This document shows positions 1 to 60,721 of a stretch of 64,000 nucleotides of DNA, piece after piece. Position 1 is the first letter of the stretch. Every line of letters starts with the position of its first letter. The notes below the pieces were generated by a model that was not told where the DNA came from, searched no databases, and saw only the letters and a program-made list of their open reading frames with translations. A program made the position numbers and the translations under genes. Location: assembly GCA_017609625.1 (NCBI GenBank), contig JAFCDN010000002.1, positions 2,785 to 66,784 on the forward strand. Direction: 5' to 3'. This DNA is from Candidatus Iainarchaeum sp. Its GTDB lineage: Archaea; Iainarchaeota; Iainarchaeia; Iainarchaeales; 1-14-0-10-31-34.

Positions 1-1
1 C

Positions 2-166
2 CCAAAGTTTTTGAAAACCGGAGACGCTGCAATAATTAAAGTTGTTCCAACAAAACCTTTAGCAGCGGAAGAATACAAAAAATTCCCTCAACTGGGAAGA
101 TTTGCTATCAGAGATATGGGACAAACAGTTGCAGCAGGCATGATAGTAAAAGTAACCCCAAAATAG
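2..166 (+). CDS. tuf: Elongation factor 1-alpha, C-terminal fragment (5' end lies outside the window)
   Basis: Frame-2 translation ...[48 protein letters not shown] matches EF-1A domain III; S10 follows, as in the archaeal EF-1A/S10 cluster. Confidence 0.8.
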
Positions 167-248
167 GCAATTTAATAATTGCTTAATTTTTTATCTTTTT
201 TAAGTTTCTTTAAAAAAGAGAACACAGCACAGGAAAAAAAGTGATTAG

Positions 249-557
249 ATGCAAAAAGCTAGAATAAAACTTTCAAGTCCAGATTACAGAGTATTAGAAG
301 ACATTTGCGAGAAAGTAAAAGAAGTTGCACGCAGAACTGGAGTAAAGCATTCTGGAAGTATTCCTTTGCCAACAAAAAAATTAACTGTTCCAACTAGAAA
401 AGGCATGCCTGGAGGCGGAACAGCCTCAGTAGAAAAATGGCAGATGCGGATTCATAAAAGACTGATTGATATTGAAGCAGATGAAAGAACCCTGCGAAGA
501 GTAATGAGAGTAGAAATCCCAGAAAACGTACACGTAGAAATCGAATTACGTGAATAA
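249..557 (+). CDS. rps10: 30S ribosomal protein S10 (uS10)
   Basis: 102 aa, ...RIKLSSPDYRVLEDICEKV...TKKLTVPTRKG... typical uS10; directly follows tuf. Confidence 0.9.
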   Translation: MQKARIKLSSPDYRVLEDICEKVKEVARRTGVKHSGSIPLPTKKLTVPTRKGMPGGGTASVEKWQMRIHKRLIDIEADERTLRRVMRVEIPENVHVEIELRE

Positions 558-582
558 CTGCCCTTTCTTTTCTTCACAAGCA
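558..582 (+). terminator. Pyrimidine/T-rich tract immediately after the S10 stop (ACTGCCCTTTCTTTTCTTC); archaeal oligo-T terminator candidate
   Basis: The same ACTGCCC(C)TTTCTTTTC motif follows the dnaK stop at 54096. Confidence 0.35.
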
Positions 583-584
583 AA

Positions 585-690
585 CGTTTCGCCGTTTGAG
601 CACGAGGCACGACACAAGGTCGTGCTAGCACAGCTTTATGCTGTGCACTGGTGTCAAGCTGACAGTGGCAGTTGTTAGCCAAAGAAAAGA
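585..690 (+). ncRNA. GC-rich structured element of unknown identity (candidate small ncRNA or 3'-UTR structure)
   Basis: Local GC is visibly far above background. Nested hairpins include ggcacgac-acaa-ggtcgtgc and gcacagc-ttta-tgctgtgc, with an outer ctgcc...ggcag closing stem. No tRNA T-loop was found. Confidence 0.25.
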
Positions 691-712
691 AATCGAAAAA
701 TCTTATTAAAAA

Positions 713-1171
713 CTATTTTTTCTTTTTAAATTTTGTATAAAATACAAACCCTATAATTAATAAAGCAAAGAATAAAACAATCAGAGTTAAAAAAAAATGA
801 TGATAAAGAAGCTCGTCTATTCTTTCTTGAATAGAAACTTTTTGACAGGTGTCGTGTCCATAGTCTTGCGGCCCAAAATAAGGCTCTAAACCTTTACAGC
901 ATTTATCAAAATTAAAAACCATTTCTCCTTCTTTAACACATGGAAGTTCTTTTCTATATTCTGACCCACATTTTCCAGAACGAAATTCATAGGTAAGACA
1001 ACTTTTCCCGTCATCAAAAATGCAAACTTCATTTAAGTTATCGTCAAAACCCAATTTATATCCTTGGCGTTCACAAAATACTTTATCAGCTCCAAGAAAA
1101 GCTCCAGAAGAATAAGTCAATAAAGAAAGCAAAAACAATAAAACAACCAAGACCACAAGCAACTTTTTCAT
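713..1171 (-). CDS. DUF333-like Cys-rich protein with signal peptide and C-terminal TM anchor plus poly-Lys tail
   Basis: FCERQGYKLGFDD...CIFDDGKSC..EFRSGKCG resembles the DUF333 (YoaF-like) motif; N-terminal hydrophobic signal; C-terminal TM followed by KFKKKK. Confidence 0.55.
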   Translation of the reverse strand: MKKLLVVLVVLLFLLSLLTYSSGAFLGADKVFCERQGYKLGFDDNLNEVCIFDDGKSCLTYEFRSGKCGSEYRKELPCVKEGEMVFNFDKCCKGLEPYFGPQDYGHDTCQKVSIQERIDELLYHHFFLTLIVLFFALLIIGFVFYTKFKKKK

Positions 1172-1584
1172 GAACTTTGCCTCTTTTTCTTTCTTTTAAT
1201 ATAAAACAAAATAACAGCAGCTATTACTAAAATTATCAGCCAAACTTCTGGCTGAAATAAAATGTTTTTGCAGTGTGCCTGGCCAATCGACATAAATCCA
1301 AGATAAGGAGAGCTTCCAAAACAGCATTGCTCAAAACCAAAAACAGGGTTGCCTTCTTCAACACAAGAAAATTCTTTTTTATATTCTGCACCACAGCTTC
1401 CATCAAAAAACTCCCCTAAATCACATTTCTCCCCATCATCAAACACACAATACATTCCATCTTCAGATATCTCTACTTGATAACCTTGATGTTCACAAAA
1501 AGGAGGATAAGGATCCATAGCTCCAAAAACAAAAGCAGATAAAAAAACTAAAAATAAAATAAACAAACCAAAAAATCTTTTCAT
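1168..1584 (-). CDS. DUF333-like Cys-rich membrane-anchored protein (tandem paralog)
   Basis: FCEHQGYQVEISEDGMYCVFDDGEKCDLGEFFDGSCG; same architecture as the neighbouring gene; 4-nt overlap. Confidence 0.55.
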   Translation of the reverse strand: MKRFFGLFILFLVFLSAFVFGAMDPYPPFCEHQGYQVEISEDGMYCVFDDGEKCDLGEFFDGSCGAEYKKEFSCVEEGNPVFGFEQCCFGSSPYLGFMSIGQAHCKNILFQPEVWLIILVIAAVILFYIKRKKKRQSS

Positions 1585-1663
1585 GAATTTATGTAAGTTT
1601 AAACTCCTATTTAAACTTTCTCATCTTTAAAAACCTTTAATAAAAGCTTTACCTTATCACATT

Positions 1664-2044
1664 GTGCAAGTTTTAATTTCTTCATTAAAACAGTTTCTTT
1701 TTCCAATTTTAATCCCAAAAATATTAACTGTGTTTATCCTTCTTTTCTTATTAAAAAATAACTGGAAAATAGAATTTGAAAACAGACTTTATCTTTCTGT
1801 TATTATTTCTACTATAATATCCACTTTAATTTTTTTAGGCTTAATTTCTGTTGTAAGCATACAAATACCTTTTTTGCTCTTATTTTTCCTAATAATGATT
1901 ATTTTTGATGCAGCTTTTATTTATGCAGTATTAGCAAAAAAAGAAATTTTTTCACTTAAAAGAACCTTAATTCTAAGCTTGGTAATGAACATTATAGGTT
2001 TTGCTATTGCACTAAACTATTTTTTTAGATCAATAAACTATTAA
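1664..2044 (+). CDS. Hypothetical small integral membrane protein
   Basis: 126 aa with 3-4 hydrophobic segments; no recognisable motif. Confidence 0.35.
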   Translation: MQVLISSLKQFLFPILIPKILTVFILLFLLKNNWKIEFENRLYLSVIISTIISTLIFLGLISVVSIQIPFLLLFFLIMIIFDAAFIYAVLAKKEIFSLKRTLILSLVMNIIGFAIALNYFFRSINY

Positions 2045-2083
2045 AAACTCACTTATAAAAAAACAACTTCACTACTTTTTATA

Positions 2084-2545
2084 ATGCAATTTGAATATTT
2101 AGAGCACACAGCAGATTTAAAGTTTCGAGCTTTTGGAGAGACAAAAAAAGAGTTAATAGAAAACTCTGGAAAAGCTTTATGCAATGCAATAATTGATTCT
2201 GGCAGTGTGGAAGAAAAAGGAAAAGGAATTATTGCAGTGCAGGCAGAAAACTTTGAACAGGTTTTGTTTGATTTTTTAAAAGAAGTTTTGTTTCAGATTG
2301 ACACGCAAGAAATTATTTTTTCAGAGTTCAAAGTAACTGAATTAAAAGAAGCTGAACCGCCTTTTTCAGAAAAAGGCAGGTTGCCAAAAACCAAAAAAGG
2401 GATTTTTCTAAAAGTTGAAGCATCAGGAGAAAAAATAAATTTAGATAAACATGAAGTGAAAACAGAAATCAAAGCAATAACAAAACATGATTTTAAAGTA
2501 GAAAAAAAAGAAAAATGGATTGCAGAAGTTTTAGTTGATGTGTGA
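2084..2545 (+). CDS. Archease (RtcB activator) carrying a palindromic-repeat-encoded insert
   Basis: MQFEYLEHTADLKFRAFG... archease N-terminal signature; RtcB lies 600 bp downstream; insert EAEPPFSEKGRLPKTKKG is encoded by the repeat at 2355-2392. Confidence 0.85.
   Translation: MQFEYLEHTADLKFRAFGETKKELIENSGKALCNAIIDSGSVEEKGKGIIAVQAENFEQVLFDFLKEVLFQIDTQEIIFSEFKVTELKEAEPPFSEKGRLPKTKKGIFLKVEASGEKINLDKHEVKTEIKAITKHDFKVEKKEKWIAEVLVDV
2355..2392. repeat. Type-B palindromic repeat (GCCTTTTTCAGAAAAAGGC + AGGTTGCCAAAAACC) in frame inside the archease CDS
   Basis: Near-copies at 17468-17503, 24983-25018, 26076-26114 and 26303-26340. Confidence 0.7.
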
Positions 2546-2586
2546 AAAACAAGCAAAATCAATACATATTTAAATCAAAATCCATA

Positions 2587-2604
2587 CAAATACTATAGTA
2601 TTTG
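2587..2604. promoter_or_regulatory. Perfect 9-bp-arm inverted repeat CAAATACTA|TAGTATTTG 24 bp upstream of the RHH antitoxin gene; candidate autoregulatory operator
   Basis: Palindrome read directly from the sequence; its position relative to the toxin-antitoxin start is typical of a RHH operator. Confidence 0.4.
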
Positions 2605-2627
2605 GTTTTGTAAGGTGTGGTGATCAT

Positions 2628-2870
2628 ATGAATGTAATTTTAAGAGGAAAAACTAAAGAAATCCTTGAAGACATGGTTGAAGACGGCTATGCAAACACAC
2701 AGTCTGAAGCAGTAAGATTAGCTATAATAAATTTTGGGGAAGACCACTTTAACGAAGAAGAAATGGTTAACAGAAAACTAGATTTAATAGATGAACAGAT
2801 AAAGAAAGGAAAAAGAAAACTGCTTAAAGCAGACAAAGGTCTTGGAAAATATGCAAAGTATTTGAAGTAG
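2628..2870 (+). CDS. Ribbon-helix-helix (CopG-like) antitoxin
   Basis: 80 aa; N-terminal beta-strand NVILRGKTKEIL followed by a helix with SEAVRLAIINF; immediately upstream of a RelE-like gene. Confidence 0.55.
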   Translation: MNVILRGKTKEILEDMVEDGYANTQSEAVRLAIINFGEDHFNEEEMVNRKLDLIDEQIKKGKRKLLKADKGLGKYAKYLK

Positions 2871-2875
2871 TTTAT

Positions 2876-3136
2876 ATGTATTCAGAAGCGTTTGATGAGG
2901 AATGGCCAAAATATTTTGACAACCTTGAAGAACAAATAAAAGGAAGGACTGCTAAAAAAATAAAAAAGATTCTGGAAAATCCACAAAAAAGACATCTTAA
3001 AAAAGCAAAATATTTTGTAGACGAAATAGGGCAAAACAGAATTGTTTACAGAGTTTTTGAAGAAGAAAAACAAGTAAGATTTTATTTTGTGGGGAATCAT
3101 AAAGAATACAAAAAATGGTACAAAAAGCTCTTTTAA
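2876..3136 (+). CDS. RelE/ParE-family toxin
   Basis: 86 aa; ...IGQNRIVYRVFEEEKQVRFYFVGNHKEYKK matches the RelE/ParE C-terminal core (R..Y R....v.il.ig.Hk.vY). Confidence 0.65.
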   Translation: MYSEAFDEEWPKYFDNLEEQIKGRTAKKIKKILENPQKRHLKKAKYFVDEIGQNRIVYRVFEEEKQVRFYFVGNHKEYKKWYKKLF

Positions 3137-3173
3137 AAAAATCATTTGTATTATATCCTATTGAAGGCATTTT

Positions 3174-4598
3174 ATGAAGCAAATAAGTAAAGGCATTTGG
3201 GAAATTCCAAAACAAGGAAAAATGCTAGTTCCAGGAAGAGTATATGGAACAAAAAAAATAGTTGAAGAAATCGAAGACAATGCAATAACACAATTAACTA
3301 ATGTAGCTGAACTTCCAGGGATACAAAAATATTCTATTGCCATGCCTGATGCTCACCAAGGATATGGAATGATAATCGGCGGGGTAGCAGCATTTGATGC
3401 AGAAAATGGAATAATTACTCCTGGCTCGATTGGTTTTGATGTAAACTGTGGGATCAGACTAGTAAAAACAAATTTAACAGAAAAAGATGTTAAAGGAAAA
3501 GAAAAAGAAATTTTAAATGAATTGTTTAATCAGGTCCCAGCTGGCTTGGGTTCAAAAGGGCAGTTCAGAGCTAATAAAGAACAGCTACAAGAGGTAATGC
3601 TAAAAGGTTCAGCTTGGGCAATAGAAAACGGTTTTGGATGGAAAGAAGATTTAGAGAAAACAGAAGAAAACGGAAAAATGCAGGAAGCTGATCCGAAAAA
3701 TGTTTCAGAAAAAGCAATTCAAAGAGGGTTGCTGCAGTTAGGTTCTTTAGGTTCAGGAAACCATTTTTTAGAGATACAAAAAATTGAAGAAATCTTTGAT
3801 GAAAAAACTGCAAAAGAGTTTGGTCTGCAGAAAGGAAAATTATGTTTAATGATTCACTGTGGAAGCAGAGGCTTTGGACATCAGATTGCATCAGATTATC
3901 TTGATACAATGGAAAAAGCAATGAAAAAATATGGAATAAAAGTGAGTGACAAGCAGTTAGCGTGTGCTCCGATTAATTCAGAAGAAGGAAAAAAATATTT
4001 CAGTGCAATGGCTTGTGCAGTAAACTATGCTTTTGCAAACAGGCAGATGATTTTGCACTGGACAAGAAAAAGCTTTGAAAAAGTTTTAGGAAAAACAGCA
4101 GAAGAAATGCAGCTGCATTTAGTTTATGATGTAGCACATAATATTGCAAAATTTGAAGAACACGAAATTGACGGCAAAAAAATGAAAGTTTTAGTGCACA
4201 GAAAAGGAGCTACAAGGGCTTTTCCTGCAGGAAAAAAAGAAAATCCTTTATCTTATATGAAAACAGGCCATCCTGCATTAATTCCTGGTTCAATGGGGAC
4301 TGCTTCCTGGGTTGTAGTTGGAACAGAAAAAGGACTGGAAGAAACTTTTGGTTCTGTCGCGCACGGAGCAGGCAGGGTTATGAGCAGATCAAAGGCAATT
4401 AAAACCAAAAGAGGAGAACAAGTGCAAAAAGAACTTGAACTGCAGGGAAAATTTGTTAAATCCAGAAGCCCAAAAACTCTGGCAGAAGAAATGCCTGAAG
4501 CATACAAAGACGTGGATGAAGTGATAAAATCTTTAGAGATTTCAGGGATAGCAAAAAAGGTTGCAAGAATGATTCCGATTGGAGTAGTAAAAGGTTAG
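3174..4598 (+). CDS. rtcB: tRNA-splicing ligase RtcB
   Basis: 474 aa; AMPDAHQGYGMIIGGV, GIDVNCGIRL, HRKGATRAFP and GSMGTASWVV motifs of RtcB. Confidence 0.95.
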   Translation: MKQISKGIWEIPKQGKMLVPGRVYGTKKIVEEIEDNAITQLTNVAELPGIQKYSIAMPDAHQGYGMIIGGVAAFDAENGIITPGSIGFDVNCGIRLVKTNLTEKDVKGKEKEILNELFNQVPAGLGSKGQFRANKEQLQEVMLKGSAWAIENGFGWKEDLEKTEENGKMQEADPKNVSEKAIQRGLLQLGSLGSGNHFLEIQKIEEIFDEKTAKEFGLQKGKLCLMIHCGSRGFGHQIASDYLDTMEKAMKKYGIKVSDKQLACAPINSEEGKKYFSAMACAVNYAFANRQMILHWTRKSFEKVLGKTAEEMQLHLVYDVAHNIAKFEEHEIDGKKMKVLVHRKGATRAFPAGKKENPLSYMKTGHPALIPGSMGTASWVVVGTEKGLEETFGSVAHGAGRVMSRSKAIKTKRGEQVQKELELQGKFVKSRSPKTLAEEMPEAYKDVDEVIKSLEISGIAKKVARMIPIGVVKG

Positions 4599-5017
4599 TT
4601 TGAACCATCCTTTCTTCTTTTTCTCTTTTTTTCCTCAATTTTCATACCAGCTAAAAGTTCGTCTGCAGTTATCCTCATTTCTCTAAATTGTTTCTTTAGA
4701 ATTGCTGTCCTTGCACCGAGTTCATTTGTGCTATGAGAAGCTGCTTGAAGTTTTGAAAACGCATCAAAAATTGGCAACTGGCTTTCTGCATACTGTTCAG
4801 CTTGTTTTTTATTGCTTCCTAAATTCCTGGAATGCCTGTAAAATATTCTTGCTGCTTGTTCTCTTTCTAAACCTAAACGAACAAGTGCCACTGCTAAAGG
4901 CAGACTTTTGTCGCCTGCTTTTTCAAGATAATACTCTCCAATAGGTCTTTTTCTGGCGGGTTTTTTGTTAACAGGTTTCCTTTTTAATCGTCCGAATATA
5001 CTGCGCTTCTTAGCCAT
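4595..5017 (-). CDS. Hypothetical basic protein, Arg-rich and GC-richer than its surroundings
   Basis: 140 aa ORF convergent with rtcB; R/K-rich termini; possible HTH at SLPLAVALVRLGLEREQAARIF; composition is atypical for this Lys-biased genome. Confidence 0.4.
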   Translation of the reverse strand: MAKKRSIFGRLKRKPVNKKPARKRPIGEYYLEKAGDKSLPLAVALVRLGLEREQAARIFYRHSRNLGSNKKQAEQYAESQLPIFDAFSKLQAASHSTNELGARTAILKKQFREMRITADELLAGMKIEEKKRKRRKDGSN

Positions 5018-5111
5018 TTTCTCTTCAATATAAAGTCAAAGATATATTTAAATACCTTCAATCACAGACTTATATATAATTTACCACTTTAGAGTGGTTA
5101 AGGGTGGTCTG

Positions 5112-7997
5112 ATGAAAAAATTTCTTGCTTTGATAATCTCTTTGATTTTTGTTTTAAGCTCAGTTAATGCTGCAGTTTTAGTTGATACTCATGATACATA
5201 TGAAGTTGAAGTCACTTCAGTTCAATTAAGAAGCTATTATGATTCTCACTGGAGCAATTCAATTACAGCAAACGACAATGATCCAATAGATATAAGGGCA
5301 GACATTTTTTTGGATTACTATAACTATTACGGAGACAGATATTATCCTTATGATTGGGTTGAAGTATGGGCTGAAGTTTATGCCTGGGACAACGGCGACT
5401 GGGTTTTTATTAAAGAAACCAATACACGACAGGTAAACCTTTATTATGCAGACCATAAAAGCGTTTACTGGTATGATGCTTTTTTTATTGACAATTATTA
5501 CAGCGAATACAAGGTTATAGTTAAGGCAAGAAATTATGAATACTACCAAGATTACAGCGAAAACTATGCTTTTATCAGTGTAAGAGAAGGCGGATTTGAT
5601 TCATACTGCAATGATATAGAAATTTTTTCAAATTCAATTGCCTTAAATGAAAATGAAGAAAAAAAAGTCACTTTTACAATAAAAAACAATTCAGATGAAA
5701 GGTTTTACATTGAACCAGATTCTTATGTGGATGAAATATACGGCGGCTCTTTTTTCAATGCATGGATTTATGATTATGACCGGTCAATTTCCGCAGGCGG
5801 AAGAGGAGAAGTAACAGTTAAAGTAAGAAGTCAAGAAGTAAGCGAAAATGAAGAAGGAAAAGCAAGACTAACAATTAAAGGAAAGTTTTACAGCGGAAAA
5901 ACATGCGATTCTGATATTAAAAGAGATTTCATTGTAAGAGTAGATAATGAATCAGAATATGAATCCTGCAAAGACATTAAAATTAATGCTTCAGATGAAA
6001 GAATGGAAGAAAACTCAACTGAATACTTTTCTTTTACTGTAAGAAATTATTCTAACACTGCATTCTATGCAAGGGCTGATGTAAGCAGTAACAACTCATT
6101 TTTTAATGCAACAGAAGAGCATTCAAATCAGGTTTACATTTCTCCAAACTCCACAGAAACATTTAGATACAAAGTAAAAAGCGATTATGTTTCTTACAAA
6201 GAAAGAGGAAAAATTTACATTAAGATTTCAGGCAATTACTCTGGCGGAGACAATTGCTCTTATTCAGAAATAGGACAAAAAACAGTTTATTTGACAGTAG
6301 AAGATAATTATTGGGAAGGAGAACAATGCGATGATTTGTCTTTGAGAACAAAAACTTTGTATGTTGATGAACAAGATGTTTATTCTGCTTCTTTTACAAT
6401 AGAAAACAATTCAAGCAGAAAATTTTACATTGAAGATATAGATTTTGATGAATACAGTTCAGAACTGGAATTCAGAAATGTAGATTACTCTTCACAAATT
6501 TCAGGAAACTCTGACAGCAAAGTTTCTTTTGATGTAAAAACAGGAAACATAAGTTCAGACAAAACAATTACTTCATACTTTAAAGTTGAAGGAAGTTTTG
6601 AAAACGGAAGAAGCTGTTCTTTTTCTGATACAAGAAAAAGATTTGATGTAAAAATAGATGCAGATTCTTCAGGCTCTTATTCAGAAAGCTGTAATGAAAT
6701 AGATGTAATCACTAGAACAGTTTCTTTGGATAAAGGAAAAACAGAATACTTTGAATTTACAATAGAAAATAATGAAGACAAAAAATTCTATGTTGATTAT
6801 GTAAATGCATATGACAATGATTCAAAGATTGAAACATCAGAATATGATTTTCCTTCAATAGTTTACGCAAACTCTGATGGAAAAATAAAAGTTAGAATTA
6901 AAGCAAACCAGACAGGAACAGCAACAGCATATATTGAAGTCAGAGGGCATTTTAGCAACGGAAAAAGCTGTTCTATTTCTGCAATAGGAAAAGAAAGCTT
7001 TACAGTAAAAGTTGAAACAACCACAAGAGACAGCTGTTCAGAATTTTATTTAGATACCCCTGCAACCAAAAGTGTTTTGGGAAGAGAAAAAATTGTTTTA
7101 AACATTGATAATCCAACAAACAAAAGCGGAACAATAAGAATCAGCGGAACAGATTTGTCAGTGAGTCCGCATACAATTGATGTTCCAAAAAACACTTCTT
7201 TTACTAAAACAATTGAAGTGGAATTACTTGAAGGAAAAGAAAGCTATTTAGTTTATAACATTTCTCTGGATGGATGTAATATTACCTCTAAAACCACAAA
7301 GATTTTTTCAACAAAAGAATCTTTTGAAGTTACAGGATATCCAAGGGAAAAAACTATTGGATTAGAAGACACAATTTCTTTTACCTTAGTAAACAATTCT
7401 GCTGTAACAAGAGACTTTAAGGTTTCATTGGAAAACCTGCCTTCTGGATGGAAAGCAAACCAGAAAAGCATTTCAATTCCAGGAAACTATGACAGAAGAG
7501 CAAGCATTTCATTAGAAGCAGATTCAGCAGGAACATACAGTGTTCTTTTGGTGGTTGAAACCGCAGGAAGAACAATAGAAAAAGAAATTGAATTAAGAGT
7601 AGAAGAAAAAGAAGTAACTGTTTCAGCTGAAACCACAAGTGGTTTCTTAAACGATTTGCAGTTAAAGATAACAATCGAAAATGAAACAGAACAAGACATT
7701 GAAGGAAATCTGATTGTAGATCTTCCAGAGAATTGGACCATGGAAGGAAACCCAAACATTGAAGTTAAAGCAAACAGCAAAAAAGAAATCTTCTTTTCTT
7801 TAAAAACTGACGGTACAGAAAAAGAATTTGATGTTTTATTAGAGTTAGAAGATGGAAGAGAAGTTTCAGCTACAGCTGACACAAAAGAAATTGGAAGCGG
7901 GACTGCATTGATTTCTTTAGGAAACAACGCAGGCTTGGTTGTTGGCTTGCTTGCAATAGTAATAGTAGTAGTAATTTTGCTTGTGAAAAGGCAATAG
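5112..7997 (+). CDS. Large secreted cell-surface protein with about 8 internal ~110-130-aa repeats and a C-terminal TM anchor
   Basis: Signal peptide MKKFLALIISLIFVLSSVNA; recurring ...F(T/S)(I/V)(K/E/R)NNS..(K/R)FYIE... modules with paired Cys; C-terminus GLVVGLLAIVIVVVILLVKRQ. Confidence 0.7.
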   Translation: MKKFLALIISLIFVLSSVNAAVLVDTHDTYEVEVTSVQLRSYYDSHWSNSITANDNDPIDIRADIFLDYYNYYGDRYYPYDWVEVWAEVYAWDNGDWVFIKETNTRQVNLYYADHKSVYWYDAFFIDNYYSEYKVIVKARNYEYYQDYSENYAFISVREGGFDSYCNDIEIFSNSIALNENEEKKVTFTIKNNSDERFYIEPDSYVDEIYGGSFFNAWIYDYDRSISAGGRGEVTVKVRSQEVSENEEGKARLTIKGKFYSGKTCDSDIKRDFIVRVDNESEYESCKDIKINASDERMEENSTEYFSFTVRNYSNTAFYARADVSSNNSFFNATEEHSNQVYISPNSTETFRYKVKSDYVSYKERGKIYIKISGNYSGGDNCSYSEIGQKTVYLTVEDNYWEGEQCDDLSLRTKTLYVDEQDVYSASFTIENNSSRKFYIEDIDFDEYSSELEFRNVDYSSQISGNSDSKVSFDVKTGNISSDKTITSYFKVEGSFENGRSCSFSDTRKRFDVKIDADSSGSYSESCNEIDVITRTVSLDKGKTEYFEFTIENNEDKKFYVDYVNAYDNDSKIETSEYDFPSIVYANSDGKIKVRIKANQTGTATAYIEVRGHFSNGKSCSISAIGKESFTVKVETTTRDSCSEFYLDTPATKSVLGREKIVLNIDNPTNKSGTIRISGTDLSVSPHTIDVPKNTSFTKTIEVELLEGKESYLVYNISLDGCNITSKTTKIFSTKESFEVTGYPREKTIGLEDTISFTLVNNSAVTRDFKVSLENLPSGWKANQKSISIPGNYDRRASISLEADSAGTYSVLLVVETAGRTIEKEIELRVEEKEVTVSAETTSGFLNDLQLKITIENETEQDIEGNLIVDLPENWTMEGNPNIEVKANSKKEIFFSLKTDGTEKEFDVLLELEDGREVSATADTKEIGSGTALISLGNNAGLVVGLLAIVIVVVILLVKRQ

Positions 7998-8175
7998 AAA
8001 GCTTTAAATAAGTTTTAGAAGAGAGATTCTTATTACTACTTTTATTAGTAGACTGTGTTCCGAAAGGAGCATAAATGCTAAAAAAAACAGCATAAACTGT
8101 TTTTTTAATGCAGTTATCATTGGTTCATACTTCACTATTCTTTATGGCTGAAGCTTGAATTTTAAAAGTGATGCA

Positions 8176-59827: not shown

Positions 59828-60721
59828 TTATTTTGCCTGCAAAGAAAATTCGTCGTTAGATGATTTTATTGCAGAAATAAAGCCTGTTCCAAAAGAATAG
59901 CCCATCTGAGAAAGAGCAGTGAATAAATCTGTTTCTACAACTCCATAATCCACTAAAACAGGTTCTCCTTCAATGCCTGCAAGCTCTGCAGTTTTGTCTA
60001 TAGCAAAATCTCTGCTTCCGGTAAAATCAATTAAATTATATTCCAAAGCTTTTCTTCCGGAAAAAATTCTTCCATCAGCAACTTCATTGAATTCTGATTC
60101 TGAAAGCTTGTCTTCTCTGAATTCTAAAATATCCAGCTTGAATTTTTCTGAAGCTTCAGAAATCAGTTCCTGCAGCAAAGCTTCTTCTTCTATAGTTAGT
60201 TCTCTAAACATTGAACCCATGTCTTTGAATTCTCCGTCTTTCATTACCTTAACTTTTACTCCAAGTTTTTCCATTAAGCCTTCAATGTTTGTAGACATGC
60301 TTATTACTCCAATGCTTCCAGTTAAAGAATCTTCATCTGCAATAATCAAATCTGAAGCAGCTGCAATATAATAGCCTCCAGATGCACCTATTTCTCCGAT
60401 ATAAGCCACAACAGGCTTTTCTGCCTTGCGCACCGCATAAACAACTTCTTTTGTTGCAACAACACTTCCCCCAGAAGAATCAATATCCAAAAAGATTGCA
60501 CTTACTAAAGGATCTGAATCTGCTTGTTTTATTTTTTCTGCAATATTAGTTGAAGTCATTGCAAAAGAAAAAGAACCCTGAGAAGAAACAATTTCTCCTT
60601 TAATTGGAATAACTGCAATCTGCCCGGAAAAAGTTAAGTCAGATAAAAGGAAAGAAAAAAGCAAAGCAATAATAATTAGAAAAGTTACGCCTGCAACAAC
60701 GACCAAAACCAGTTTGTCCAT
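59828..60721 (-). CDS. sppA: Signal peptide peptidase SppA (S49 family)
   Basis: 297 aa; N-terminal TM; IDSSGGSVVATKEV and IGEIGASGGYYIAAASDLIIA motifs. Confidence 0.8.
   Translation of the reverse strand: MDKLVLVVVAGVTFLIIIALLFSFLLSDLTFSGQIAVIPIKGEIVSSQGSFSFAMTSTNIAEKIKQADSDPLVSAIFLDIDSSGGSVVATKEVVYAVRKAEKPVVAYIGEIGASGGYYIAAASDLIIADEDSLTGSIGVISMSTNIEGLMEKLGVKVKVMKDGEFKDMGSMFRELTIEEEALLQELISEASEKFKLDILEFREDKLSESEFNEVADGRIFSGRKALEYNLIDFTGSRDFAIDKTAELAGIEGEPVLVDYGVVETDLFTALSQMGYSFGTGFISAIKSSNDEFSLQAK

Follow-up and report, generated by a model that had tools for sequence, protein, structure and literature searches.

A probable mobile RelBE-like toxin-antitoxin cassette in the archease-rtcB junction of Candidatus Iainarchaeum sp.

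Why should a toxin-antitoxin (TA) pair lie between the two genes of an archaeal tRNA-splicing operon? The question was raised by a stretch of 64,000 nucleotides (nt) from Candidatus Iainarchaeum sp. (GenBank assembly GCA_017609625.1, contig JAFCDN010000002.1, positions 2,785 to 66,784 of the forward strand), called the window below, in which two small open reading frames (ORFs) separate archease from rtcB. A sequence-only reading had taken these ORFs for a ribbon-helix-helix (RHH) antitoxin and a RelE/ParE-like toxin, had proposed a palindrome upstream as their operator, and had suggested that an RNA-cleaving toxin beside the RNA ligase RtcB pointed to a damage-and-repair link. The TA pair itself was supported by the profile matches and fold of the toxin, by the topology of the antitoxin and by the constant association of the two genes. 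Taken as a whole, the locus is probably best explained by a mobile cassette of the RelBE kind, which would have come by chance to occupy a permissive gap between archease and rtcB and would use repeats in its promoter as operator. The features on which this account draws are listed below (positions in the window).

2084-2545, forward strand: archease (Pfam PF01951, E 1.5e-37), the left flank of the insertion
2546-3173, forward strand: 628-bp segment without counterpart in close relatives, made up of promoter region, antitoxin, toxin and a 37-nt spacer
2551-2569 and 2573-2591, forward strand: two 19-nt direct repeats, AAGCAAAATCAATACATAT and AATCAAAATCCATACAAAT, at a lag of 22, bracketing a TATA-like box
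2562-2577, forward strand: conserved block ATACATATTTAAATCA, containing the TATA-like TTTAAAT at 2569-2575
2587-2604, no strand: perfect 18-bp palindrome CAAATACTATAGTATTTG (9+9), overlapping the 3' end of the second repeat and the predicted transcription start
2619-2625, forward strand: Shine-Dalgarno (SD)-like GGTGATC, 2 nt before the antitoxin ATG; GGTG(A/G) stands at the same place in relatives
2628-2870, forward strand: antitoxin ORF of 80 amino acids (aa), between archease and rtcB
2876-3136, forward strand: toxin ORF of 86 aa, containing RIVYRV...VGNHKEYKK
3137-3173, forward strand: 37-nt spacer from the toxin stop to rtcB, with a TATA-like TATTATAT at 3149-3156 and an SD-like GAAGG at 3163-3167
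3174-4598, forward strand: rtcB (Pfam PF01139, E 3e-178), the right flank, without an intein

The presence of two small ORFs between archease and RtcB was confirmed by the ORF listing and by Pfam matches of the flanking genes. Close relatives were collected by archease scans of genome and metagenome contigs, with identities of 62-81% in tblastn and 68-90% in global alignment. The junction was empty in six of the ten distinct close alleles, and archease and rtcB were also adjacent in all four distant genomes (L015-18). Only 1-12 nt separated the archease stop from the rtcB ATG in L012, L013, L019, L021, L022 and L025/26, the spacing of a coupled pair, showing that the window carries a 628-bp insertion in a coupled operon. 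The flanking genes are those of the known archease-RtcB tRNA-splicing operon (PMC3973293, PMC4604427); unlike that operon, the one in the window is interrupted by a foreign segment of 628 bp, and the 5' end of its rtcB has been rebuilt (MKQIS...). The pair was found in nine other distinct contexts, and neither archease nor rtcB was present in any of them. Its neighbours there were FEN1 and FmrO (L001), an acetyltransferase and 3-dmu-9_3-mt (L002-4), GmrSD (L005/6), Fic and Q_salvage (L007), thioredoxin and PQQ (L008), a second ParE pair (L009/10), GatB (L011), a probable ribosomal protein S15 identified by eye only (L034), and nitroreductase and MgtC (L035-38). In one metagenome-assembled genome (MAG; GCA_024277355), contig 4 carried a TA homologue (P0007), whereas the archease-rtcB junction, on contig 5 (L013), was empty. 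The archease-TA-rtcB arrangement, whose conservation in relatives had been put forward as a check on the damage-and-repair idea, was thus not conserved.

The 86-aa protein matched Pfam PF05016 (ParE_toxin) at 23.8 bits, above the cutoff of 23.0 (E 7e-5), over residues 2-77 and profile positions 3-87 of 89, and matched HigB more weakly. The same model was matched by 29 of 37 aligned members of the toxin family (best E 5.3e-7). Homologues numbered 55 (86-90 aa, 55-77% identity) and came from metagenomes and MAGs labelled 'archaeon' or Diapherotrites. Twelve residues were invariant in the family alignment (W10, K28, R39, Q53, R55, Y58, F69, F71, G73, H75, K76 and Y78). When the family profile was compared with the sequences in the PDB, E. 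coli RelE was the sole toxin found, at full length and with an E of 5.5e-4. In that alignment R55 fell on RelE R61 and G73-N-H75 on G79-K-R81; RelE K52 and K54 were aligned with non-basic residues, other basic residues that are invariant or nearly so (K38, R39 and H40) being located in the preceding loop, and the invariant Y78, in the C-terminal helix, was out of register with RelE Y87. K52, K54, R61, R81 and Y87 make up the catalytic set of E. coli RelE, and YoeB-type toxins have His/Tyr catalysts at the site that corresponds to H75-K76-x-Y78. By this analogy, we infer that the invariant His in place of RelE R81 would work as it does in YoeB-type toxins.

The AlphaFold (AF2) model of the toxin had a predicted local distance difference test score (pLDDT) of 89.7 and a predicted template modelling score (pTM) of 0.79. 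Strands were predicted at residues 3-6, 47-51, 54-61 and 66-74 and helices at 10-14, 19-34 and 75-85, giving the short N-terminal strand, two helices, three-stranded antiparallel sheet and C-terminal helix of the RelE fold. E. coli RelE (4fxe) came first in Foldseek, with template modelling (TM) scores of 0.73-0.77, and matches to RelE structures had a probability of 1.00. All of the top 11 matches were RelE structures, archaeal ones included; the order ran from E. coli RelE through M. tuberculosis RelE1, T. thermophilus RelE and the RelE proteins of P. horikoshii and M. jannaschii to YoeB/HigB, with ParE from rank 40. The above-cutoff Pfam match and a model closest to RelE structures bear out the RelE/ParE-like assignment made from the letters of the sequence. 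The protein is most likely a RelE-like ribonuclease (RNase) toxin, RelE being likelier than ParE on both profile and model.

The alternative, that the toxin is a ParE-type poison of gyrase or topoisomerase and the pair a ParDE system with no connection to RNA, was judged unlikely. The Pfam model that it matches does bear the name ParE_toxin; however, PF05016 takes in both RelE and ParE, and the toxin-family profile found RelE in the PDB but not ParE. In comparison with the ParDE systems of M. tuberculosis (ParDE1, 8c24) and Caulobacter (3kxe), the pair shares PF05016 and has an antitoxin whose commonest match to a toxin system was ParD (TIGR02606, 38 of 52 members) and whose best structural matches were the RHH domains of ParD and PrpA. 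E. coli RelE K52 and K54 also lack a basic counterpart in the toxin. Against this, RelE, YoeB and HigB were well ahead of ParE in the structural ranking, in which ParE stood at rank 40 or lower with E above 0.01, and the invariant R55, lying on the catalytic R61 of RelE, and H75-K76-x-Y78, at the site of RelE R81 and of the YoeB-type His/Tyr catalysts, are more in keeping with an RNase site than with a gyrase poison.

Among characterized systems the likeness to E. coli RelBE (4fxe, 4fxh, 4v7j/k) was the closest for the toxin by profile and fold (about 25% identity to RelE), and in both the small toxin gene, of about 90 codons, follows a small gene for an RHH-type antitoxin. The window toxin differs from E. 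coli RelE in its invariant His at R81, in its shorter C-terminal helix and in having H-x-x-Y rather than R-x5-Y; its antitoxin is closer to RHH proteins of the ParD/CdrS type than to RelB, and its host is an archaeon with a TATA-type promoter. The archaeal RelBE systems of P. horikoshii (aRelE-aRelB, 1wmi) and M. jannaschii (3bpq) likewise combine a RelE-fold toxin with an antitoxin partner, and both were in the top 10 structural matches. However, similarity to them was weaker than to bacterial RelE (14-15% identity, TM 0.62-0.68), and the window toxin family is separate from them, being confined to DPANN-like lineages as far as sampled. The toxin ORF also contains a self-complementary 12-mer, CAAAATATTTTG, twice (2907-2918 and 3006-3017, 99 nt apart); both copies encode K-Y-F, and the duplication is probably a coding coincidence in an AT-rich genome.

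Homologues of the 80-aa protein numbered 119 (53-78% identity, nearly all of 80 aa) and were distributed among Diapherotrites, Micrarchaeota and unclassified archaea; several carried the JGI label of Arc/MetJ-type RHH regulators. The window protein itself had no Pfam match. Within its family, Pfam RHH_1 was weakly matched by 3 and VapB by 4 of 52 members, and the NCBIfam models CdrS, an RHH regulator, and ParD (TIGR02606) by 46 and 38 of 52, all below threshold, with a best E of about 1e-4 that was far under the curated cutoffs. The AF2 model (pLDDT 86.6) was extended over residues 1-6 (strand 2-6; MNVILRG) and had helices at 7-18, 25-40, 43-59 and 68-78, with a turn between the first two helices at G20-Y-A-N-T-Q-S (GYANTQSEA). 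This arrangement fits the RHH topology of N-terminal strand, helix A, G-x-[S/T/N] turn and helix B. The best Foldseek matches were PrpA/ParD (7ycs and 7ycw), ParD1 (8c24) and NikR, all RHH proteins, with E of about 1 or more; neither the curated RHH and antitoxin profiles of Pfam and NCBIfam nor the RHH structures in Foldseek were matched significantly. The strand residues MNVILRG were near-invariant across the family, and the C-terminal helices were conserved.

As leads rather than tests, the family alignment was also compared by hhalign with RelB and CopG sequences. RelB gave a 13-residue in-register match at a probability of 10%, with the helix-B motif ANTQSEAVRLAII in register with RelB GVTPSEALRLMLE, and CopG gave nothing. 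Matches of the antitoxin to tau and chorismate mutase among PDB sequences were of low complexity and were discarded as spurious. The earlier assignment as an RHH protein thus held in its beta-alpha-alpha topology and in the consistency of the ParD and CdrS matches, but not at the level of any curated threshold. The 80-aa protein is a probable RHH antitoxin by its predicted topology and consistent weak matches, and its C-terminal helices (43-59 and 68-78) probably wrap the toxin.

Antitoxin and toxin genes adjoined and were co-oriented in every locus examined, with either a 4-nt overlap or a gap of 5-7 nt (5 nt in the window). Co-orientation of two small genes, an antitoxin that comes first, translational coupling and inheritance together whatever the neighbours are the pattern of a type II TA system. 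The ratio of nonsynonymous to synonymous substitution (dN/dS), calculated from comparisons with six or seven homologous copies in which synonymous sites were for the most part saturated, was 0.07-0.15 for the toxin and 0.11-0.19 for the antitoxin, indicating that these are real genes; by these ratios both are under strong purifying selection. DNA homology between copies of the cassette extended from about 2551, some 25 bp upstream of the TATA-like box, to the toxin stop codon. These limits indicate a mobile unit of about 640 bp comprising the promoter and two genes. The 37-nt spacer (3137-3173) showed no conservation in other cassette copies in the boundary alignments. As far as sampled, the family of the pair is confined to Diapherotrites- and Micrarchaeota-like (DPANN) archaea. 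No paralogue of either protein, nor of the YoeB-type pair described below, was found in the window by tblastn and family hidden Markov models (590 ORFs of at least 45 aa).

The segment from about 2551 to 3136 would accordingly be described as a self-contained, horizontally mobile type II TA cassette of the RelBE kind. Its antitoxin would dimerise through the N-terminal RHH domain, bind its own promoter and wrap the toxin with its C-terminal helices, and a toxin freed from the antitoxin would cleave mRNA in the ribosomal A site; for neutralisation and autoregulation, the conserved C-terminal helices and the conserved promoter repeats are indirect indications. As a TA module it is ordinary; what it adds is a RelE/RHH family restricted to DPANN archaea, as yet uncurated and with an antitoxin that lacks a Pfam model. 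Contigs bearing such cassettes were also rich in other TA or defence-like genes (ParE-like toxins, PIN, SocA/Panacea and AbiEii; L009 1858-5396, L033 1780-2729 and L008 9184-10110), which suggests that these small archaeal genomes harbour many modules of this sort as background.

In the promoter region, the block ATACATATTTAAATCA was the same or nearly so in 7 of the 8 cassette copies aligned and in L034-L037, and is presumed to be the archaeal promoter of the cassette. The direct repeats phased at 22 nt had 16/19 identity in both the window and L035, a level reached by none of 500 shuffles, and a near-identical repeat with the same architecture stood upstream of the pair in L035-L037, in another genomic context. 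A family-wide operator made of the lag-22 repeat was rejected: the repeat was not significant in L001, L005, L007, L008 and L034 and is a feature of a sub-clade. In another sub-clade (L005, L007, L008 and L011) an inverted repeat, ATTCATTTTGAAT, stood just upstream of the box; it is truncated in the window, where the left arm was lost at the archease junction.

The perfect inverted repeat at 2587-2604 was real, as had been claimed; its proposed role as operator fared less well. Under a first-order Markov model of the window (32.7% GC), 0.86 perfect palindromes of at least 18 bp were expected per 64 kb and two were observed, the other being TTTCTGAAGCTTCAGAAA at 60145-60162, showing that the palindrome is unremarkable as a sequence feature and that its position is the unlikely part. 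The chance of such a palindrome in the 82-bp gap before the antitoxin gene was about 1e-3 (0.86 x 82/64000). The TATA-like box, centred at about 2572, would place the transcription start near 2598, inside the palindrome. In this copy, a dimer of RHH dimers could then sit on the 9-bp arms over the start and block RNA polymerase; the palindrome falls in the interval from the TATA-like box (2569-2575) to the SD, a common site of action for repressors in archaea. The YoeB-type cassette, which is unrelated, likewise has a palindrome of its own, 16 bp long (TATATCAATTGATATA), just upstream of its antitoxin. However, no sequence resembling CAAATACTATAGTATTTG with up to 4 mismatches lay upstream of any homologous pair, the palindrome being kept in 0 of 12 other family promoter regions although the N-terminal strand of the antitoxin is near-invariant. 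What was conserved instead was the ATACATATTTAAATCA block, the 22-nt direct repeats and the upstream ATTCATTTTGAAT inverted repeat. We regard a functional operator at the palindrome as possible but doubtful. Because the palindrome is absent in relatives while the DNA-reading strand of the antitoxin is near-invariant, the conserved block and the 22-nt repeats appear to be the better candidate operator. Autoregulation would run through this block with its phased direct repeats, and the private palindrome at the predicted start could add to repression without being the operator of the family.

The archease-rtcB junction was occupied by other elements in several relatives. In L014 (the same as L023) and L024, a different pair of 96 aa and 117 aa stood at the same junction, co-oriented with rtcB (L014 5499-6231; L024 2182-2903). 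The 117-aa protein carries the NCBI name of a YoeB-family toxin and matched Pfam YoeB_toxin at 23.5 bits, under the cutoff of 27; the palindrome TATATCAATTGATATA lies upstream of this pair, and no BLAST similarity was detected between it and the pair of the window. Elsewhere the YoeB-type family lay beside RFC, TGT or patatin, and rtcB or archease was present in 0 of 3 extra contexts. In L020 the junction (3335-5058) contained a 242-aa ORF of no known family and, on the opposite strand, a LAGLIDADG endonuclease (Pfam E 6e-19). Upstream of its cassette, at 5506-5534, L014 has kept 29 nt of the former rtcB start (ATGAATCCAAAAGAAATCTCAAAAGAATA).

Occupancy was tied to polymorphisms in the flanking genes and not to phylogeny (window 3174-3270 and 2515-2545; the same regions in L014, L020 and L024). 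In all four occupied alleles rtcB began with MKQIS(K/N)GIWE...VPGRVYGTKKI, which in the window reads MKQISKGIWEIPK...VPGRVYGTKKIV, and archease ended in W(I/A)AEVLVDV (...KWIAEVLVDV in the window), a variant seen in occupied-junction alleles only. In all six empty alleles rtcB began with M(N/K)xKE... and archease had WTA(E/T/I)V. The window archease was 90% identical to that of the empty-site allele L019 and 70-79% identical to those of the other occupied alleles; descent of the occupied junctions as one vertical lineage was ruled out, occupancy not being congruent with archease similarity. The rtcB of L024 was a mosaic: over its first 25 aligned codons it was closer in nt identity to the window (89%) than to L022 (73%), and over the next 58 codons closer to L022 (86%) than to the window (72%). 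This switch in identity marks the gene as a recombinant whose breakpoint lies near codon 30.

The pattern fits a permissive landing pad that spreads by recombination in its flanks. One ancestral event would have rebuilt the 5' end of rtcB (MKQIS...) and broken the tight coupling to archease, and the resulting gap would be permissive for any small selfish cassette. The occupied allele would then move between lineages by homologous recombination through the 3' end of archease and the first 30 or so codons of rtcB. An essential, normally tightly coupled pair of tRNA-splicing genes has been split, and at least three kinds of selfish element have made use of the gap. On a small scale, the locus neatly illustrates how addiction modules and homing endonucleases come to lie in safe harbours beside essential genes in reduced archaeal genomes. 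Farther into rtcB, an intein of about 1.5 kb follows GFDIN|C (residue ~92) in L012 (2774-4281), L020 (5334-6841; Pfam Intein_splicing E 1.3e-18) and L022 (5721-7228), and a probable intein was seen in L019 from 3017.

Would the position of the pair reflect RNA repair all the same? RelE-type toxins cut mRNA on the ribosome, and their cuts leave cyclic-phosphate or 3'-phosphate and 5'-OH ends, in principle substrates for joining by RtcB; the fragments of mRNA have nothing to hold them for religation, unlike those of tRNA or rRNA. In a functional coupling of damage and repair, a TA promoter derepressed under stress would read into rtcB, the supply of ligase would go up just as the toxin produces 2',3'-cyclic-phosphate and 5'-OH ends, and RtcB with archease would reseal the RNAs cut by the toxin. 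Two different RelE-superfamily TA cassettes at the same junction (that of the window, and the YoeB type in L014, L023 and L024), both co-oriented with rtcB, a distance of only 11-37 nt from toxin stop to rtcB ATG, SD-like sequences before that ATG and no strong terminator apparent would all suit such a coupling. Ligases that act against toxin damage are documented: RtcB reverses the MazF cut of E. coli 16S rRNA (PMC5416887), and RtcB2-PrfH repairs the damage of colicin E3 (PMC9223846). Those bacterial systems resemble the window in having an RNA ligase able to reseal the ends left by a toxin endoribonuclease, but their substrates are structured rRNAs and the nuclease gene lies away from rtcB, whereas in the window co-location is present without being conserved and the toxin is of a type expected to cut mRNA. 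The archaeal archease-RtcB pair is moreover a constitutive housekeeping operon for tRNA splicing (PMC3973293), unlike the stress-induced rtcBA of bacteria.

Conserved co-occurrence, by which an RtcB-linked module would be recognized, was found in none of the nine window-family contexts and none of the three extra YoeB-type contexts; the junction was empty in most close relatives, one MAG held the pair and the junction apart, and the third type of occupant is a homing endonuclease and not an RNase toxin. The lack of conservation, an occupant that is no RNase and the poor suitability of mRNA fragments for religation argue against a dedicated link, and we consider the functional coupling improbable. 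The neighbourhood of RtcB appears to be an accident of insertion and not a dedicated damage-and-repair module. Equally little weight was given to the idea that, in this DPANN clade, selection makes RNase toxin cassettes of the RelE superfamily dock preferentially at the archease-rtcB junction. If so, an essential tRNA ligase would stand under a stress-derepressible TA promoter, coupling toxin release to ligase supply, and two unrelated RNase-toxin cassettes with a spreading occupied allele would speak for selection and not for a neutral landing pad. Activity of the TA promoter may read into rtcB as a side effect, since the 37-nt spacer contains the SD-like GAAGG and no obvious terminator, and the spacer elements TATTATAT and GAAGG could have a role in rtcB expression. 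Were rtcB driven by the TA promoter, the locus would be a natural test case for toxin and RNA-repair coupling in archaea, although present evidence is against a dedicated link.

The chance insertion of a mobile cassette, which we prefer as a whole, must itself be set against several results that weigh on the other side. The sample of close alleles was small, with 10 distinct alleles. Entry of the cassette was not explained by any integrase, target-site duplication or other scar of insertion; around 2546-3173 the search for target-site duplications and terminal repeats gave no convincing scar, only A-rich coding look-alikes (D2/D4, 2491-2516 versus 3055-3080). Of the three types of element in the junction, two are TA pairs of the RelE superfamily that are co-oriented with rtcB, and selection for an RNase beside the ligase would predict this as well. 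The RHH call rests on sub-threshold sequence matches and on structural matches with E of about 1. The RelE catalytic set was only partly mappable to the toxin, K52 and K54 having no aligned basic residue and R81 being replaced by His. Toxicity, RNA cleavage, neutralisation and DNA binding are deduced from the fold and the conserved residues.

Upstream of archease, the spacer that separates it from the S10 gene (window 558-2083) was a second variable spot. S10 and archease adjoined in L012 and L013, and in L014 and L020 the spacer held other genes, including one for a large membrane protein. In the window it contained three ORFs for small membrane proteins, at 713-1171 and 1168-1584 on the reverse strand and at 1664-2044 on the forward strand; the first two were tandem paralogues with weak DUF333 matches. 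An Rfam scan of window positions 1-8000 with E up to 1 found no RNA family, indicating that the intergenic pieces there are not known noncoding RNAs. Downstream of rtcB, an ORF of 967 aa (5094-7997) had a signal-like segment at its N-terminus, several internally similar modules of about 120 aa and a hydrophobic anchor at its C-terminus, and may encode a surface protein.

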